Sequence record: PZ490076.1 | Length of the DNA: 40,032 nt | Direction: 5' to 3' (one strand) | Source: a phage | Part shown: positions 2,432-40,032 of the stretch, piece after piece | Position numbering within the stretch: position 1 is the stretch's first letter | Layout: each line of letters begins with the position of its first letter | The notes under the pieces: generated by a model | Told to the model about the DNA's origin: nothing | Seen by the model: only the letters and a program-made list of their open reading frames with translations | Database searches by the model: none | Translations under genes and position numbers: made by a program

Positions 2432-4219
2432 CTAGTGGAACGTAACGTAGGACCCTAGTCCAAGCTCGTCGTCCGTATCGTGAGTTACCCGGACCCCATT
2501 GTCCCAGAACTCAGTGTGGATGGACTCGAAGCCTTTCCGTGGGTTCTCCATCTGTTCTTCCAGCCACTCCTCAGTGACTTCACGTTCGCCTTTGTTGGCA
2601 TCCTTCGCCATAGACTCAACGAAGAACTGTACACCGATAGCCAGCGCATCAAGTCGGTCATCGTGTGCCAATGCTCCACGTTCACGAGAGATACGTGTCA
2701 TCTGGTAGAAGAGAGAGTAGATAGGATTACGAACACCATCCTTATCAGAGGCAGACTGGTAATCTTGGACGATAGCAGCAGCGTTGATGATAAGTCGGTG
2801 AGACCCCATGATAGGCTCCAGAACGTCACAGATGCGGAGCTCCTTCTGACCCTTACTCTTCACTTCAGTTACAGCAGCAGGATGAATACGGGAAGCTACA
2901 GGCTTGAATAGCTCAAGGTACATCCCATCACCGAAGTTACCCTCAATGACGTATTCGTTGACCTTCCACTTACGACCAATCTTAGCTAAGGCTTCCAGAG
3001 TAGAGTCTTCATAGCCACCTCGCATACCGCCAACTTCCATAGCGAAGATGTAGCCGTTTAGCTGATACAGTACCGCATAACCAGTTTCATCCTTACCACG
3101 ACCACTAGGGTCAATGACTAGAATCTTCTGGGTGTACGAACTGAAGGCAGAACCTACAGTCTGATACGTGTGGTATGAGTCACCCATGAGTCCAACGTTA
3201 GGAACGTCCTCACGCTTGTTCTGAGGGTTAGGAAGCCATTGGTATACCATTGGGCTAGACGCTGGGTCCAAGTCGGCTACGATAAGGTCACGGAGCTTCA
3301 GAGGGTACTTCTCGGCATCACTCAGGTTAGGGTTAAGCATGAACTGTAGAGCGAAGCCAGCTTTACCATAGGACAGCTCACGTTCCTTCAGGTCCGTATC
3401 ATCGAATCGTACCTCATCGGTCGGACGCCAGTAGAAGGACTCAGGGTCCTCTTCCAGTTCTGCCTGAAGCATAGGAGCCAGACGGTCGCCGTAAGACTGC
3501 CAGTCCTTCTTATCGCGTGGGTAGCGAGCGGGCCAGATGGTAGTGGTGTATCCACGGCCTTCCAGCTCACGATACAAGGTCATCTCGTTCTGAGGAGTAC
3601 CTAGATAGATGATTGTACCTCCCGGCTTCAGGATAGCGTCGAACTCTTTTACAAGCTCTGACAGACGGTCTCGTGCAGCCTGAGTCGCTGAGTTGTTAGG
3701 AACCTCAACGTCATCGGCAATCAGGATGTCAGCACGACTACCAGTCAACTGACCAGTGATACCAACGGACTTAACCGAAGGTGAGTGGTCTGGCTTGGCT
3801 GGTCCAACGTCGAAGCTGATAACCGCATCTCGCTGCCCCTGCTTAGGTTTGAGTTCCTGAAGCTGAGGCATGAGGTCGATGATTCGCTTGATGAAGATGG
3901 AGTTCGCATCGGCTCGTTCCTTTGAGGCCGACACAATCATGAACTTCAAGTCTGGGTTGTTCCATAGTTTCCAGACCACGAAACCACAGGTCAGAAACGA
4001 CTTACCAATACCACGGAAAGCCTGAAGGATGAAGCGGCGATTATCCCCAGCAGCCAGCTTCTTACACATATCTATCTGGCAGCGGGTTGGAACCGGAAGG
4101 CTAAGAGCTTTCCAGAGAACGAAGATGAAGAACACGAAGTCCTCTTTCATCCTTTTTGTCACGGCCTCATTACGCTCTTGCGGCGTTAACTGCATCAATT
4201 GCCTCCTGTTCAGTATCAA
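2432..4219 (-). CDS. Terminase large subunit (T7 gp19 homolog), 595 aa
   Basis: Translation aligns with T7 gp19 from [18 protein letters not shown] onward ([53 protein letters not shown]). Confidence 0.97.
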
Positions 4220-4556
4220 ATCGACCGAGCCAGCGAGGTTGTATAGCCTTCCACTTCCCGGTCTGTTTACAATAAGACACGCCTTTCGGCAGGTCCCTGT
4301 TCCTGTTGTTTTCAGCCTTGGTCACAGCCCGAAGGTTCTCAATCCTGTTGTCTGTCCGGTTGCGGTTGATGTGGTCAATCACAAGGTCTGATTCAAGGGC
4401 GAACTCAGGGTTGTGCAGCTTGTAGATTAGACGGTGTACGAGATACTTACGGTAGTTGACCGTAGTCCTAAGATAACCGTGGTTGTCCATTGAGCCGACT
4501 TCACGTCCCTTCCTGAACAACTTACCGTCTGAATACGCAAAGTCTGTCAACATCAT
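4170..4556 (-). CDS. Free-standing HNH homing endonuclease, 128 aa, between Rz and terminase
   Basis: HNH motif in translation ([19 protein letters not shown]...[26 protein letters not shown]); start overlaps the Rz stop (ATGA); no counterpart at this position in T7. Confidence 0.85.
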
Positions 4557-4999
4557 TGCTCCTTCTCTTGCTGTAAGGCTCTCACAGTGTCTTGAAGGGC
4601 CTTAATCCACTTGTCTCCTTTCACTCCGATGGCGATAAGACGTTTAGCATCTCGTTCGTCAAGTTCGGCGTAACCATCAATGAAGCATCGACCGTCACTT
4701 TGCGTGGTTCCACTCGTAGGTTTGACTCGGACGAGCAGCCGCTTATTGTCAGACTTAAGGTCAGTAATAATCCTATCAGTGCTGCCTTCCAGCTCGGACA
4801 TTTCGTCCTGAAACCGTTTGGACACTTTGTTGACTTCAGCTTGGACAGCAAGCCTTGTATCTTCCGATGCCTTAAGATTCGAGGTGTATTCTGCATTGAC
4901 CTTAGCCTCCCACTTGTTGTTAGCGGTGTGGTAGCCACCAGCAAACATCACTGCTGCAAGTAGCCACGGAGCCGCTCTCTTAAATTTTTGAAATACCAT
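4553..4999 (-). CDS. Rz-like i-spanin (T7 gp18.5 homolog), 148 aa
   Basis: N-terminal transmembrane segment (WLLAAVMFAGGY) and strong similarity to T7 gp18.5 (EGSTDRIITDLKSDNKRLLVRVK..DERDAKRLIA..GDKWIKALQDT). Confidence 0.85.
   Translation of the reverse strand: MVFQKFKRAAPWLLAAVMFAGGYHTANNKWEAKVNAEYTSNLKASEDTRLAVQAEVNKVSKRFQDEMSELEGSTDRIITDLKSDNKRLLVRVKPTSGTTQSDGRCFIDGYAELDERDAKRLIAIGVKGDKWIKALQDTVRALQQEKEQ
4621..4896 (-). CDS. Rz1-like o-spanin lipoprotein embedded in the +1 frame of Rz (T7 gp18.7 homolog), about 91 aa from the internal Met
   Basis: Lipobox LTISGC and C-terminus similar to T7 gp18.7 (WKAALIGLLLTLSLTISGCSSES...SLMVTPNLTNEMLNV). Start codon uncertain. Confidence 0.7.
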   Translation of the reverse strand: MQNTPRILRHRKIQGLLSKLKSTKCPNGFRTKCPSWKAALIGLLLTLSLTISGCSSESNLRVEPRKVTVDASLMVTPNLTNEMLNVLSPSE

Positions 5000-5381
5000 A
5001 TGTCTCCTTTAGCATTCTGCTATGAGTTGACTTAGCCCATTCCACGACTTCCTTCAGATTCTTAGTAGGAGCATGAGTTTCTTTCTTACCTCCCATCCTA
5101 ATGTCACCATAGTACATAGTTACACCTTGACGTTTAGCAAACCTAGAGTATACGCCTTTAGGTAGTTCCCTAGAGGATACAGTGTTAGCCTTGTTTGCGC
5201 CTTTAGGTATGCACCTAAGGTTTGACAGTTCGTTATTCATAGGATTCCTGTCAATGTGGTCTATGACGTAGCCATCTGGGATAGGACCGTAGGCTTCCTC
5301 CCATAGTAATCTATGAACCCCATGAACCTTACCATTGCGAGTAACCTTCCAGTACCCACCACTTATGTAAGCGTCTTCCAT
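4980..5381 (-). CDS. Free-standing HNH homing endonuclease, 133 aa, between small terminase and Rz
   Basis: HNH motif (GKVHGVHRLLWEEAYGPIPDGYVIDHIDRNPMNNELSNLRCIPKGANKAN); strong RBS AAGGAGGT 5 nt upstream of ATG. Confidence 0.85.
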   Translation of the reverse strand: MEDAYISGGYWKVTRNGKVHGVHRLLWEEAYGPIPDGYVIDHIDRNPMNNELSNLRCIPKGANKANTVSSRELPKGVYSRFAKRQGVTMYYGDIRMGGKKETHAPTKNLKEVVEWAKSTHSRMLKETYGISKI

Positions 5382-5396
5382 ATAACCTCCTTAGTG

Positions 5397-5438
5397 TTAA
5401 CCATAAAGGCCACTACCTATAGTAATGACCTTGAGTCT
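5397..5438 (-). promoter_or_regulatory. Candidate RNase III processing site (copy A of a conserved 42-bp element), upstream of the HNH gene / downstream of gp18
   Basis: Minus strand AGACTCAAGGTCAT-N-GTGGCCTTTATGGTTAA; same element occurs at 29280-29318 and 36245-36286; resembles T7 RNase III sites (..GCCCTTTATGAT..) and sits where T7 has R18.5. Confidence 0.4.
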
Positions 5439-5443
5439 AACAC

Positions 5444-5707
5444 TTATTGAACACCATACCCTGTGTCATTATCCTCAGTCGCTGAAAGTACCTTATCGTA
5501 CTCTGCGTTCAGGGCCTCCATATCAGCCAGCGTCTTCTCGTCCACAGACACCTTACTTAACACAAAGTTGTGACGAGCAAGCAGCTTCTCAATGGCGTTG
5601 TAGAGCTGAGGTGAACGCTTAGTGTCATCCCGCAAGTCTTGCAGCATAAGTCGAGCACGCTCAGTATCAAGCATCAAGAGGAACTTCTCTAAGTCCATCT
5701 GCGTCAT
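5444..5707 (-). CDS. Terminase small subunit / DNA maturation protein A (T7 gp18 homolog), 87 aa
   Basis: Similarity to T7 gp18 (FLLMLDTERARLMLQDL...RSPQLYNAIEKLLARH). Confidence 0.85.
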   Translation of the reverse strand: MTQMDLEKFLLMLDTERARLMLQDLRDDTKRSPQLYNAIEKLLARHNFVLSKVSVDEKTLADMEALNAEYDKVLSATEDNDTGYGVQ

Positions 5708-5898
5708 GTTTTACCACCTCCTTTAATCGTTTTGTAGACTAGCACACCAATCTGGACAACGGTGTACGCGATAGCTGCAACGTAGAACCATTCGTTCAGT
5801 GTAAGTCCGAAGAAGAACCGACTGGCACCATCAGCCGCAGCGGTCCCGACGATAGGAGAGGCTTTAAGGACCTCATTCTTGAAGTCTAACTCAATCAT
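5704..5898 (-). CDS. Class II holin (T7 gp17.5 homolog), 64 aa
   Basis: Similarity to T7 gp17.5 (FFFGLTLNEWFYVAAIAYTVVQIG). Confidence 0.8.
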   Translation of the reverse strand: MIELDFKNEVLKASPIVGTAAADGASRFFFGLTLNEWFYVAAIAYTVVQIGVLVYKTIKGGGKT

Positions 5899-9273: not shown

Positions 9274-9296
9274 GTTTCCTATAGTGATAGTTTAGT
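9274..9296 (-). promoter_or_regulatory. Phage RNAP promoter (phi17-like) upstream of the tailspike gene
   Basis: Minus strand GGACTAAACTATCACTATAGGAAACTGG; the gp16 TAA stop codon lies inside the promoter. Confidence 0.7.
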
Positions 9297-26642: not shown

Positions 26643-27243
26643 CTTTCTGTATTCTCCTATTACTAGGAGTGTCGGACTATATCATCAGCCTTTGAGTTGA
26701 CTGTCTGGCGCTTCGGGTAACGAGGGAGTCTCACCCTCGGCCCTACTCCTTTCGGATAGTCTCTACGCCTTCCACTCTCTAATCCACTTACACGCGGCAG
26801 AGAACGTAACACCAAACTTCTCACCTAAGTGTGTTCCTGTACATCCAGTCTCCAACCAGTATTCCTTCGCGGACTCTTTACGGTCAGCGTAGCGTTCTCT
26901 GTTTGTCTTGACTGTATGCTCAGACCCTTCTAGTAACTGGAGATGCTCTGGATTACAGCATGCCCTGTTCCTACACTTGTGGTCTACTTCATACCCTTCT
27001 GGTATATCTCCGTGCTGTTCCTTCCAGACTGTCCTGTGGTACATCTCTAGGACACCGTTAGTCCTCTTTCGGAAATAACCATCAGCATTAAGTTTGTGTG
27101 ACGTAGGGATGATACAACCACTCTCTGTGGTCGCAAGGATTAACTTCTTGCCTCTCATATATCCTCCCTATGGCTTGGCTCGGTATTGCCCTAGAAGGGT
27201 TTCACCGAGTTCACCAGATTTAATGTGCACAATGAGATAGTTT
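26643..27243 (-). mobile_element. Group I intron (about 601 nt) interrupting the DNA polymerase gene, carrying an HNH endonuclease ORF
   Basis: Exon 1 ends ...AYMAWVH (U at the splice site), exon 2 resumes DEIQV (intron ends in G); possible P1 pairing between exon GUGCAU and intron GUGCAC; group I R-like (AGAGACUA) and S-like (GAUAUAGUCC) elements in the 3' part. Confidence 0.75.
26763..27158 (-). CDS. Intron-encoded HNH homing endonuclease, 131 aa
   Basis: HNH motif (EVDHKCRNRACCNPEHLQLL); GGGAGGA RBS 5 nt upstream; wholly inside the predicted intron. Confidence 0.8.
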   Translation of the reverse strand: MRGKKLILATTESGCIIPTSHKLNADGYFRKRTNGVLEMYHRTVWKEQHGDIPEGYEVDHKCRNRACCNPEHLQLLEGSEHTVKTNRERYADRKESAKEYWLETGCTGTHLGEKFGVTFSAACKWIREWKA

Positions 27244-29259
27244 ATGCACCCATGCCATGTATGCAAAGTCTCCTTCCCAGCCGTGGACATACCCGGCCTC
27301 TTCGAGCATACGTTCAGTCTCGACAATCCAGTGCTTACAGACTACCGCACCATCGCCTTGAAGTAAGGCGTTCAGTGCTGAGTGTGGAGACCGGATGTGG
27401 ATACGGCGACCGTCAAGTCCACGCAACCAACGGCGTTTCCACTTGACGATATTCTCTCCGTCAACCCACTTAGAGTCTGAGATTAACGTACTACTCACAG
27501 CTTCCCTGAGGTCTTTGATGGCTGGTGTACCCTCAATGAATTTCTTCATGAGAGCTGAACCTTCCTTCTTCCCGCCGCCTACTATCAGTCCAATCTTAGC
27601 GGCCCCTGCACCATACAGGAACGCATAGATGAACGTCTTAGCGTTGTTACGGAAAGCATCATGGTCGTGGCTCGACTTATCGCGTGGGACGTTAGGCGCT
27701 AACCCAGCGTTTACTGCGTTGGCCCAGTGGATATCACCTTCGACCACAGTCTTCGCATAGGCACCACCATCAAACGGAGCCGCTCGGTTCCCCAGACAAC
27801 GAAGCTCAAGACCTGAAGCATCCACACCCACTTGAATCCAAGGGTCTGGCTTACCATCCGTCTTGTTCCAAGCTGCACCGAAAGCACCACGGCAAATCTC
27901 ACCATACGGAGCACCGTTAGCAGGGACCTGAGCCATGTTTGGTGAACTGTGAGTCGCACGTCCGGTTACTGCCCCGCATGGGTTGATTGAACCGTGCATA
28001 CGTCCGTCTGGACCTACAAGTTTCAACCATGCGTTCTTACCTTCAGCAGCCTGACCTATGCGCTTCTGGACTACCAGATACTCACGGACCAGCTCTACGC
28101 AAGCCTGAGCCTCTGCGTCCGGTAACTTAACGTGTTCTAACGTCTCGTCATCGACTACAGGTTTCCCTGTGTCAGTGAAGTCCACAGGCTCCCAGCCACG
28201 CTCCATCAGGACTTTCGCTAAGTGGTCTCCGCTTCCCGGATTAAACTCAACGTAAGTGATTGGCGTGAACGGTGCTCCTTCCATCGTGTCTCGTGAGTCG
28301 AACTCGCAAGGCTCCAGACCTAAGCGTTGAGCTTTGTTCTTCGGCTTCTTGAATACTGACCCGACCTTAGGATACACGACTCGCGGATACTTCGGGAGGT
28401 CCTTTCCTGTCCGTGGGTGCCTGAAGAACTCCTTGCCACCCTTCGGTGCATACCAGCTACCGAAAGTCGAACGCAGCTTGTCCAACAGCTCTGCACGTTT
28501 GACGGTTAGTTCACGATATAAGCCTTCGACCATCTCGGTGTTCATCGGATAGCCGTTACGCTCCATCTTCGCACAGGTCCACGCAGCATCATGTTCCAGA
28601 CGCAACGCATAAATCTGGTCGAGAGCGAACTGTTCAGACTGGAAGTAATACTTGTCAGTCAGGAACTTCTTGAACAACGCCAGTGTGACCACAACGTCTT
28701 GAACGTTATAGTCCAGCATCTCCTGAGACGGGAACAGCCATTCGTCCCCAGCCTTATATTCGATACCTTCAGCCTTGCACTTGGCAACGTAATCGTGTTT
28801 GTACTCACCTTTCATCTCACCGAGACGATAGCCCCAAGCCTCAAGAGACTGGCGTCCCATCATCTTAGGTGGCAGACGACCAGCTTTCACTGCGCCCATG
28901 TCTGAGAACTTAATGTTTGGATACATCAAGCGTCCCAGCACCAAGGTATCAATCATCTTGTGTTTCGGGAAGTTAAAGCGTTTCCCAAAGTACAGACGCT
29001 TCAGCTTGTCAATAGCCGGGACGTCATAGTTGATACCGTTGTGGAATACCAGCATACCATCAGGTGATGCGGCAATCTCTTCCACCTTCTGTACATACTC
29101 TTTGAAGCCACCGACGATACCGACCATCGGAGCTACCCCATACTTAAGGGTCTCATTCGACTCGGCGTTAATCAGGACCCCACAGTGAAACTGGGAGACT
29201 GTATCAAGGAGACCGTTGGTCTCTATGTCAGAACCCCAGATACTCTTAAGGTCAAACAT
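27244..29259 (-). CDS. DNA polymerase, exon 1 (T7 gp5 homolog), about 672 aa
   Basis: Strong similarity to T7 gp5 (MEGAPFTPI..VEFNPGS.DH, NGAVTGRATH, DASGLELRCL, AKTFIYAFLYGAG, GDFAYMAWVH); start placed at MFDLKSIW (GGAGGA RBS), not the upstream track start at 29295. Confidence 0.9.
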
Positions 29260-39719: not shown

Positions 39720-39916
39720 TACAGTTTGCTCCCAAGAGTTGCTATATCCCAGACGTTCGCGAGGTTGCATATGAATCGTCCGTTAGGCTGACGTACAGTC
39801 CAGCGGACCATACGTACATAGTTGAATTTATAGACTTTACGCGCTTTGTTGATGTCTCTCACCAGCACGTAGGCGATAAGTCCATAGCCTATGGCTATCA
39901 ATATTGCGCTACTCAT
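39719..39916 (-). CDS. Hypothetical small early protein with a hydrophobic N-terminus, 65 aa
   Basis: ORF track; N-terminus MSSAILIAIGYGLIAYVLV looks membrane-anchored; start lies in the window-end overlap region. Confidence 0.35.
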   Translation of the reverse strand: MSSAILIAIGYGLIAYVLVRDINKARKVYKFNYVRMVRWTVRQPNGRFICNLANVWDIATLGSKL

Positions 39917-40032
39917 AGTGATTTCCGTTTAATACAGTCGTATATCCCATACCCTATTAGCCAGATGACCGGAGATAAGCATACCCAATGTCCAACACTC
40001 ATAGTTAACCTCTATCAATTTAAGTGGTAATC

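Follow-up and report, generated by a model that had tools for sequence, protein, structure and literature searches.

Phages T4 and T5 carry selfish genes (SegF/SegG and MobE in T4, the F-Tfl nickases in T5) that lie in intergenic positions between conserved essential genes and share the promoters of their neighbours. These free-standing endonucleases spread by cleaving the allele that lacks the gene, with co-conversion of the flanks and localized marker exclusion. The Seg enzymes belong to the GIY-YIG family, and activity has been demonstrated for SegF/SegG, MobE and F-Tfl, whereas for the two genes described here, HNH-A and HNH-B, it is predicted. F-TflVIII also turned up here as an annotation. 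The nearest described enzyme is I-HmuI (PDB 1U3E), an intron-encoded HNH nicking enzyme of the Bacillus phage SPO1, which shares the catalytic D-H...N...N residues and in which a beta-strand region at the N-terminus likewise precedes the beta-beta-alpha-metal core. I-HmuI is, however, encoded within an intron, is 174 aa long and has a different C-terminal DNA-binding part, whereas HNH-A and HNH-B are free-standing and about 130 aa long, and HNH-B, unlike I-HmuI, ends in a predicted AP2 domain.

Endonuclease genes have also been described at the position studied here. ORF48 of Hafnia phage Ca is an HNH gene located between Rz and the large terminase gene, and a variant with a 397-bp deletion coexists with the complete phage (PMC8861465). 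Phages of the Hafnia phage Ca/Citrobacter phage CR44b type are Kayfunavirus relatives in which the endonuclease gene of this Rz/TerL slot overlaps both neighbours; in Ca the TerL ATG lies upstream of the endonuclease stop, as it does for HNH-B. Their HNH protein, which is 143-145 aa long and shares about 37-40% identity with HNH-B, nevertheless belongs to another HNH_3 lineage, and the Ca genome has no endonuclease in the gp18/Rz slot. In the Yersinia fPS podoviruses (Helsettvirus), Gp045 is annotated as 'homing endonuclease' (PMC5923468); it is a true orthologue of HNH-B, with about 66% amino acid identity, and lies directly upstream of TerL. Phages fPS-53, -54-ocr, -85 and -89 have an HNH-A orthologue upstream of Rz too, that is, the same two-gene arrangement. 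HNH homing endonuclease genes in the Rz/TerL slot are thus already published for related phages. Existing records label orthologues as homing endonucleases, and the genes are of an ordinary, known kind of mobile gene.

The window, that is, the whole stretch of 40,032 nucleotides analysed here (PZ490076.1), is 99.98% identical to Escherichia phage BUCT788 (Kayfunavirus). We propose, with a probability of about 0.85, that HNH-A and HNH-B are two independent free-standing selfish homing endonuclease genes of the I-HmuI-like HNH_3 class, placed in the two short junctions that flank the spanin genes of this K1F-like coliphage.

Organization of the locus

All genes at this locus are on the minus strand. 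The holin gene (5704-5898) is followed by the small terminase gene gp18 (5444-5707; PF11123, E 3.1e-12; PHROG terminase small subunit), and directly after the gp18 stop lies a stem-loop (5390-5443, predicted folding energy −21.8 kcal/mol). The alignment shows it to be kept in all Kayfunavirus loci as far as the insertion point, and it is presumably the counterpart of the T7 R18.5 RNase III site. Next comes HNH-A (4980-5381, 133 aa), then the i-spanin gene Rz (gp18.5, 4553-4999; PHROG Rz-like spanin, E 1.5e-57), in which the o-spanin gene Rz1 (gp18.7, 4621-4896) is embedded in another frame. The Rz1 ORF contains a lipobox-like LTISGC and corresponds in both length (276 nt) and position to the 18.7 CDS of K1F. 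HNH-B, a putative free-standing endonuclease gene of the HNH_3 plus AP2 type (4170-4556, 128 aa; the GenBank start, 4553, is one codon later than 4556), precedes the T7-type large terminase gene TerL (gp19, 2432-4195; PF22530, E 5.3e-38; GenBank CDS). Both HNH ORFs that had been noticed in a sequence-only reading are thus present at the coordinates given there, on the minus strand, and Pfam and PHROG calls together with the coordinates confirm their positions in the gp18/Rz slot (slot A) and the Rz/TerL slot (slot B), with ends overlapping their neighbours.

The overlaps measure 20 nt between HNH-A and Rz (4980-4999), 4 nt between the Rz stop and the HNH-B start (ATGA) and 26 nt between HNH-B and TerL (4170-4195). 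The Shine-Dalgarno sequence and ATG of Rz are located within the 3' end of HNH-A, with AAGGAG 4-5 nt upstream of the ATG; likewise, the AGGAGG Shine-Dalgarno sequence and the ATG of TerL (4195) fall within the 3' end of HNH-B. The endonuclease ORFs themselves are separate, with ribosome-binding sites AAGGAGG and AAGGAG, respectively, and no Rfam match pointed to an intron in the region around them.

We then looked at the expression signals. The nearest upstream phage promoter core, AACTATCACTATAGG, is an exact match at 9278-9292 on the minus strand. The promoter core CTATCACTATAGG occurs in nine exact copies, eight of them this 15-mer, and the chance expectation for a 15-mer with up to 3 mismatches is 0.93. 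No further core with up to 3 mismatches was found between 9278 and 2333, and promoters proper to HNH-A or HNH-B were rejected on that basis. Since neither endonuclease gene has a phage promoter of its own, both are carried on the late transcript, which probably starts at promoter 9278-9292. This timing bears on the idea that the proteins serve as general nucleases, either for the degradation of host DNA or against a host defence. Apart from the nuclease domain itself, that proposal can draw only on the speculation made for Hafnia phage Ca (PMC8861465). Expression is late, with the lysis and packaging genes, and not early; homing enzymes with sequence specificity are built in this way, from HNH_3 and AP2; and the strict slot specificity of each lineage (see below) would be left unexplained. 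We therefore give this proposal almost no credence.

HNH-A and HNH-B resemble I-HmuI

Both proteins match Pfam HNH_3 (PF13392) far above the cut-off of 24.8 bits (HNH-A, 65.3 bits, E 3.6e-18; HNH-B, 64.1 bits, E 9e-18), and both match PHROG HNH families. Residues D41/H42, N54 and N63 of HNH-A and D61/H62, N74 and N83 of HNH-B are in register with D74/H75, N87 and N96 of I-HmuI, which we take to be, in the case of the histidine, the general base, with the adjacent aspartate, a structural asparagine and a metal-binding asparagine. Among 61 HNH-B homologues, D61, H62, N70, N74, L75, R76 and N86 never vary, and N83 is conserved in at least 90%. HNH-A and HNH-B are thus intact I-HmuI-like HNH_3 endonuclease genes that retain the beta-beta-alpha-metal catalytic residues, and the earlier proposal of two free-standing HNH homing endonuclease genes flanking Rz/Rz1 is supported, the catalytic motif being present.

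When HNH-B was used as a single sequence, the PDB search gave no matches and the Pfam AP2 match was sub-threshold (17.7 compared with 33.3 bits). The 61-sequence HNH-B profile was required to reach I-HmuI (9e-09) and the AP2 domain of WRI1 (WRI1/ERF AP2, 4e-10); PF00847 (AP2) is present in HNH-B homologues. In the AF2 model of HNH-B (pLDDT 93.7), the C-terminus is made of three strands (93-96, 101-105 and 109-113) and a helix (116-127) that match the WRI1 AP2 domain, and Foldseek returned I-HmuI as the best PDB match of the model (1u3e_M, E 4.7e-04, prob 1.00). Profile and model together assign an AP2-type DNA-binding domain to the C-terminus of HNH-B. An equivalent domain in HNH-A was considered and rejected: Pfam gave no AP2 match, the hhalign alignment of HNH-A to the HNH-B family profile ends at residue 78 (KGV) with residues 79-133 unmatched, and these C-terminal ~55 residues matched no known DNA-binding domain. 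The two genes cannot be regarded as recent duplicates either, as their similarity extends over only 72 aa, at 40% identity. The GC content of HNH-A is 42.5%, compared with 49.8% for the genome.

Distribution among relatives

K1F has neither gene, both slots being empty in the alignment, and most of about 200 close relatives lack both. Neither ORF is thus a core gene of the group, and each carries the HNH motif, which leaves standing the identification made from the letters. Of 579 matching records, only 7 span 80% or more of the 3.7-kb region. TM1 and YZ1 have HNH-A only; Cronobacter B1, BDX03P1 and P7124 have HNH-B only; and phiYIO1-1 combines HNH-B with an Endonuclease VII ORF in slot A. Elsewhere the same slots are occupied by unrelated endonucleases or a 53-aa ORF. 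Both ORFs are polymorphic for presence or absence at defined sites while the flanks are 90-100% identical. The two orthogroups are strictly slot-specific: all 58 records of HNH-A orthologues are immediately upstream of Rz, and all 29 records of HNH-B orthologues abut TerL. The figures on occupancy come mostly from GenBank phage records, since an IMG/VR scan with Rz yielded 11 loci only.

In T7, an HNH-A-like gene was found at a single place, gene 3.8, whose HNH product comes closest to HNH-A among T7 paralogues, with 34.7% identity across 76% of the query. This site is in the class II (DNA metabolism) region and not in the 18-19 region, where T7 records contain no HNH-A-like gene, in line with the T7 gene order given beforehand.

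Comparison between genera points to horizontal movement, in particular of HNH-A. In the comparison with a Teetrevirus, HNH-A is 80% identical as compared with 49% for gp18 and 46% for Rz. The signal is weaker for HNH-B across genera (66%, compared with 54% for Rz and 76% for TerL). The HNH-B of pO91, with 70% identity between flanks of 93-99%, also points to movement. The four fPS phages mentioned above belong to another genus, and in 4/4 the match to HNH-A is broken into two pieces; the copy of fPS-54-ocr is shortened to an ORF of 84 aa, which fits the expectation for a decaying copy.

These data also bear on a remark of the sequence-only reading, namely that HNH proteins encoded next to terminase genes have been implicated in packaging. 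HK97 gp74, the type of these proteins, stimulates cutting by the terminase, and on such a reading HNH-A and HNH-B would be accessory terminase subunits whose position is functional. The genes do lie in the interval from gp18 to TerL, the two terminase genes, the start of TerL is embedded in HNH-B, and the authors of the Hafnia phage Ca study raised the idea for the slot-B HNH (PMC8861465). Like HK97 gp74, HNH-A and HNH-B are HNH-superfamily proteins encoded beside terminase genes; gp74-type proteins, however, show conservation within their phage groups and act together with terminases of the cos type, whereas K1F and most close relatives are viable phages without HNH-A and HNH-B, and other relatives fill the slots with the unrelated ORFs listed above. 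Proteins of the gp74 type have a [CxxC]2 zinc site (PMC3592412). This site is missing from HNH-A and HNH-B, which have one cysteine each (C57 and C96, respectively) and whose sole Pfam HNH match is HNH_3. According to Kala et al. 2014, as quoted in PMC8861465, a packaging HNH protein needs a Terminase_1 partner in a cos phage. The HK97 case concerns Terminase_1 in long-tailed cos phages, whereas the TerL of the window matches PF22530 (T7 RNaseH-like) and, weakly, Terminase_6N, and gave no Terminase_1 match in the Pfam scan. The packaging remark is thus not supported, and we regard such a role as very improbable.

Cassettes and insertion boundaries

Alignment with K1F-type relatives devoid of the ORFs, a comparison suggested at the outset for locating the insertion boundaries, gave approximate limits for two cassettes on the minus strand. 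Cassette A (about 413 nt, approximately 4979-5391) stands in for about 66 nt of K1F-type intergenic sequence between gp18 and Rz, with the first Rz codons among them. Its left edge is at the 3' base of the stem-loop, and with it the N-terminus of Rz changes from MLEFLKR (K1F-type) to MVFQKFKR. Cassette B (about 417 nt, approximately 4142-4558) stands in for about 62 nt of the K1F-type junction between the Rz stop and the TerL start, including the first ~18 codons of TerL, and the K1F-type N-terminus MSKDLVARQALMTARMKA is exchanged for another 18-residue version. Each cassette therefore swaps about 60 bp of empty junction, and the essential gene that follows takes its ribosome-binding site, start codon and first codons from it.

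In the other loci examined that carry a slot-B endonuclease (L005, L016, L017, L020 and L021), the 3' end of Rz was divergent, as compared with 0/12 loci without one. The divergent TerL 5' allele is not strictly linked to HNH-B: L018-L020 combine HNH-B with the K1F-type allele, and in L008 slot B is empty yet the TerL 5' allele is that of the window. We thus rejected the TerL 5' allele as a clean co-conversion tract of HNH-B. The window-type allele matches the one found with the other slot-B HNH lineage.

Proposed homing and its alternatives

Homing would account for these cassettes as follows. In a mixed infection with a relative that lacks the gene, the enzyme would nick or cut the empty junction or a nearby site, and recombinational repair from the endonuclease-bearing genome would then copy the cassette and some flank into the recipient. 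The bearer genome would be immune because its replaced junction is without the target. With Rz and TerL starting inside the endonuclease genes, the fitness cost would stay low and an imprecise loss would be lethal.

Values of dN/dS were about 0.1 for HNH-A as well as for HNH-B, which points to purifying selection on both genes; selection of this strength would also fit a function beneficial to the phage. It is also in keeping with the possibility that the proteins once were homing endonucleases, have stopped homing and are kept either because the next gene starts inside them or through marker exclusion against co-infecting competitors, without self-copying. The ribosome-binding sites and start codons of Rz and TerL do lie inside the endonuclease ORFs, and the gene-deleted variant of Hafnia phage Ca was dominant in small plaques (PMC8861465). 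Dependence on the embedded start regions, however, would constrain the last ~10 codons only and not an entire ORF, the catalytic and DNA-binding residues are conserved, and spread across genera with an identity above that of the flanks argues for continuing transfer. Marker exclusion and homing being outcomes of one cleavage event, this alternative is a nuance more than a true competitor; we consider it unlikely. 

Ongoing homing, the reading that we prefer, may be extended to the slots themselves. Slot B is occupied by two HNH lineages and slot A by HNH or Endonuclease VII, and several unrelated endonuclease lineages could have landed repeatedly at the two junctions flanking the spanin genes. 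Repeated cleavage and repair would then drive the striking local mosaic structure seen in the spanin genes and in the first ~200 nt of TerL, the spanin module would be quasi-mobile through co-conversion, and each cassette, as the source of the start region for the essential gene after it, would be locked in. We put this forward tentatively, as a possibility that we would not favour at present.

Selfish genes at these positions would account for the poor alignment of the 18-19 region among K1F-like phages and for the mosaic look of Rz and of the 5' end of TerL. This has a bearing on phylogeny and taxonomy, and on engineering K1-specific phages for therapy. Deletion of the ORFs requires the start regions of Rz and TerL to be rebuilt. 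HNH-A and HNH-B might in addition offer new specificities for nicking or cutting, and they leave current understanding unchallenged.

A third HNH gene within a group I intron

A third, intron-encoded HNH gene had also been claimed for this genome, and it is real. The DNA polymerase gene contains a group I intron (26653-27253, minus strand; RF00028, E 6e-08, full model length), within which an HNH_3 ORF is located (26763-27158, E 1.9e-16). At the gathering threshold, the Rfam scan of the window gave no matches; the intron, whose score of 38.3 bits is below the gathering score of 50, surfaced only in the E-value-mode scan. It interrupts the polymerase at AWVH|DEIQ, exon 2 starting with DEIQVACRT... 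Slot variation, the conservation of HNH-A across genera above that of its flanks and this intron-encoded HNH gene together bear out the view that endonuclease genes are moving through these genomes.

Two HNH genes flank the spanin genes

Over the 3.7 kb that carry both HNH genes, the window and Escherichia phage BUCT788 (PV540240.1) are 100% identical, and the BUCT788 record, circularly permuted, matches the whole window at 99.98% identity; the nearest named relatives are the K1F-group phages (Kayfunavirus, Studiervirinae). The minus strand carries every gene. As the sequence-only reading had claimed, two HNH ORFs flank Rz/Rz1 within the terminase region, the order being holin (5704-5898), small terminase gp18 (5444-5707), HNH-A (4980-5381, 133 aa), Rz (4553-4999) with Rz1 embedded in it (4621-4896), HNH-B (4170-4556, 128 aa) and large terminase TerL (2432-4195). 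Both products matched Pfam HNH_3 far beyond the cut-off (E = 3.6e-18 for HNH-A and 9e-18 for HNH-B) as well as PHROG families of HNH endonucleases. HNH-A and Rz share 20 nt, the stop codon of Rz and the start codon of HNH-B interlock as ATGA, and HNH-B and TerL share 26 nt.

We then looked at the proteins themselves. Residues D41/H42, N54 and N63 of HNH-A align in register with D74/H75, N87 and N96 of I-HmuI, an HNH homing endonuclease of solved structure (1U3E), and D61/H62, N74 and N83 are their equivalents in HNH-B; the catalytic motif is present in both. Judging from their 40% identity over the core, the two are paralogues, a level at which recent duplication was rejected. A database search with HNH-B gave 255 homologues, most of the more distant ones combining HNH_3 with AP2; in a 61-sequence alignment D61, H62, N70, N74, L75, R76 and N86 were invariant and N83 at least 90% conserved. 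The N-terminal two-thirds of the HNH-B profile matched I-HmuI (9e-09) and the C-terminal third plant AP2/ERF domains (WRI1, 4e-10). The AlphaFold model of HNH-B was confident (pLDDT 93.7); among PDB structures I-HmuI was its best match (probability 1.00) and the AP2 domain of WRI1 came next. No match was found for the last ~55 residues of HNH-A.

Their position next to the terminase had also raised the idea of a role in packaging. Terminase-associated HNH proteins contain a [CxxC]2 zinc site (PMC3592412) and, in the statement quoted in PMC8861465, act with Terminase_1-type enzymes of long-tailed cos phages. HNH-A and HNH-B have one cysteine each, the window's terminase is of the T7 type, and most relatives lack both genes; the packaging reading is thus not supported.

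Each gene lies in an exchanged cassette

Alignment with relatives placed cassette A, the inserted stretch carrying HNH-A, at ~4979-5391 and cassette B, carrying HNH-B, at ~4142-4558, both on the minus strand. Cassette A starts precisely where the conserved stem-loop past the gp18 stop (-21.8 kcal/mol) has its 3' base, and takes the place of ~66 nt of the K1F junction, first Rz codons included; the stem-loop is the putative counterpart of the R18.5 RNase III site of T7. Cassette B replaces ~62 nt that include the stop codon of Rz and the opening ~18 codons of TerL. In each cassette the ORF is preceded by a good ribosome-binding site, and the 3' end supplies the ribosome-binding site and ATG of the next gene (Rz for A, TerL for B). 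The phage promoter core occurs nine times in the window; the scan found no copy between 9278 and 2333, so HNH-A and HNH-B would ride the late transcript.

Slot occupancy and mobility

Only 7 of the 579 matching phage records covered the region to at least 80%. Presence or absence of each gene was clean in the alignment: K1F has neither, HNH-A occurs alone in TM1 and YZ1, and HNH-B alone in Cronobacter B1, BDX03P1 and Klebsiella P7124, so these are not universal core genes. Other genes occupy the same junctions. In phage phiYIO1-1, which has HNH-B, the gp18/Rz slot is taken by an Endonuclease VII-family ORF (L003 3075-3350; PF02945, E = 4e-17). The Rz/TerL slot is filled by a different 145-aa HNH_3 protein in 101120B1-2 and two IMG/VR contigs, and in two IMG/VR contigs (L009 2944-3105; L012) by a 53-aa ORF without Pfam match; in these the TerL start is K1F-type and intact. 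In phiYIO1-1 (L003 1-486) and contig L011 (~4757-5209) an HNH gene lies directly downstream of TerL, a third landing site in the region.

Each endonuclease lineage is strictly slot-specific. HNH-A orthologues adjoin Rz in 58 of 58 records (42 Klebsiella, plus Escherichia, Yersinia and Enterobacter) and HNH-B orthologues adjoin TerL in 29 of 29 (Kayfunavirus, 20 Yersinia fPS records, Morganella); apart from BUCT788, the two occur together only in Yersinia fPS-53, -54-ocr, -85 and -89. HNH-A is 80% identical to its Teetrevirus copy, against 49% for the flanking gp18 and 46% for Rz, and HNH-B of pO91 is 70% identical between flanks of 93-99%. Both genes have a dN/dS of ~0.1, and HNH-A is AT-rich (42.5% GC vs 49.8% for the genome). 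The HNH-A orthologue of fPS-54-ocr (L024 2001-2389) is frameshifted or truncated to an 84-aa ORF, as expected of a late stage in the life cycle of a homing gene. The TerL annotation of the same phage consists of a 495-nt piece, then a gap and another ORF (L024 3207-4389), which suggests that the terminase gene itself contains a further insertion.

The flanking genes are mosaic. Besides the window, five genomes had a slot-B (Rz/TerL) endonuclease, and each of them showed a divergent Rz 3' end; none of the 12 without one did. A TerL 5' segment of ~160 nt (~3970-4130, minus strand, codons ~22-75) exists as two alleles, K1F-type and window-type, with ~25% DNA divergence; the protein is ~97% identical, and the remainder of TerL is 97-99% identical. 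The allele does not follow HNH-B strictly, and the window's type is common to genomes with the 145-aa HNH and one empty-slot genome (L008), a pattern suggestive of successive invasions or recombination. Compared with the window, Rz is 65% identical in P7124 and 74% in pO91, with adjacent holin and gp18 at 98-100% and TerL at 93-98%; the spanin gene itself is a hotspot of local mosaicism, flanked by the two endonuclease slots. In TM1 (L004 ~2543-2741) an in-frame stop (TGG to TGA) breaks Rz, annotated as two short CDSs; either this is an error of sequencing or the spanin gene has become a pseudogene.

On these comparisons, classical intronless homing best explains HNH-A and HNH-B. Expressed late, the putative enzyme would nick or cleave the empty junction site-specifically in a co-infecting relative; the bearer genome would serve as repair template, with co-conversion of the flanks, and would be immune to its own endonuclease because its junction has been replaced. 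The finding is correct but ordinary, this kind of gene being already known. HNH-A is labelled homing endonuclease in BUCT788, TM1 and IME321; For HNH-B the annotation reads "hypothetical protein" in BUCT788 and putative homing endonuclease in phiYIO1-1; in the fPS phages it is Gp045, on which the authors commented (PMC5923468). Hafnia phage Ca (Kayfunavirus) also has an HNH gene in the Rz/TerL slot, overlapping both neighbours and variably present, but it differs from HNH-B (PMC8861465).

A third HNH gene lies in a polymerase intron

An HNH_3 ORF (26763-27158, minus strand, E = 1.9e-16) lies inside a group I intron (RF00028; 26653-27253, minus strand) of the DNA polymerase gene, which bears out the earlier count of three HNH genes; no further one turned up when the other larger ORFs without annotation in the window were scanned. 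The intron match is full-length (E = 6e-08); its 38.3 bits fall below the Rfam gathering score, a shortfall for which the large ORF insert is presumably responsible. The polymerase frame halts after ...AWVH and picks up past the intron as DEIQVACRT...ECH* (split AWVH|DEIQ); the GenBank record gives a truncated polymerase CDS and leaves the intron unannotated. The intron ORF bears a zinc-loop-like CRNRACC motif.

Window bases 1-168 are 93.6% identical to the BUCT788 stretch collinear with the window's other end (~39906-40032), probably as part of a terminal repeat; in the BUCT788 record itself the same 127 bases stand at either end.
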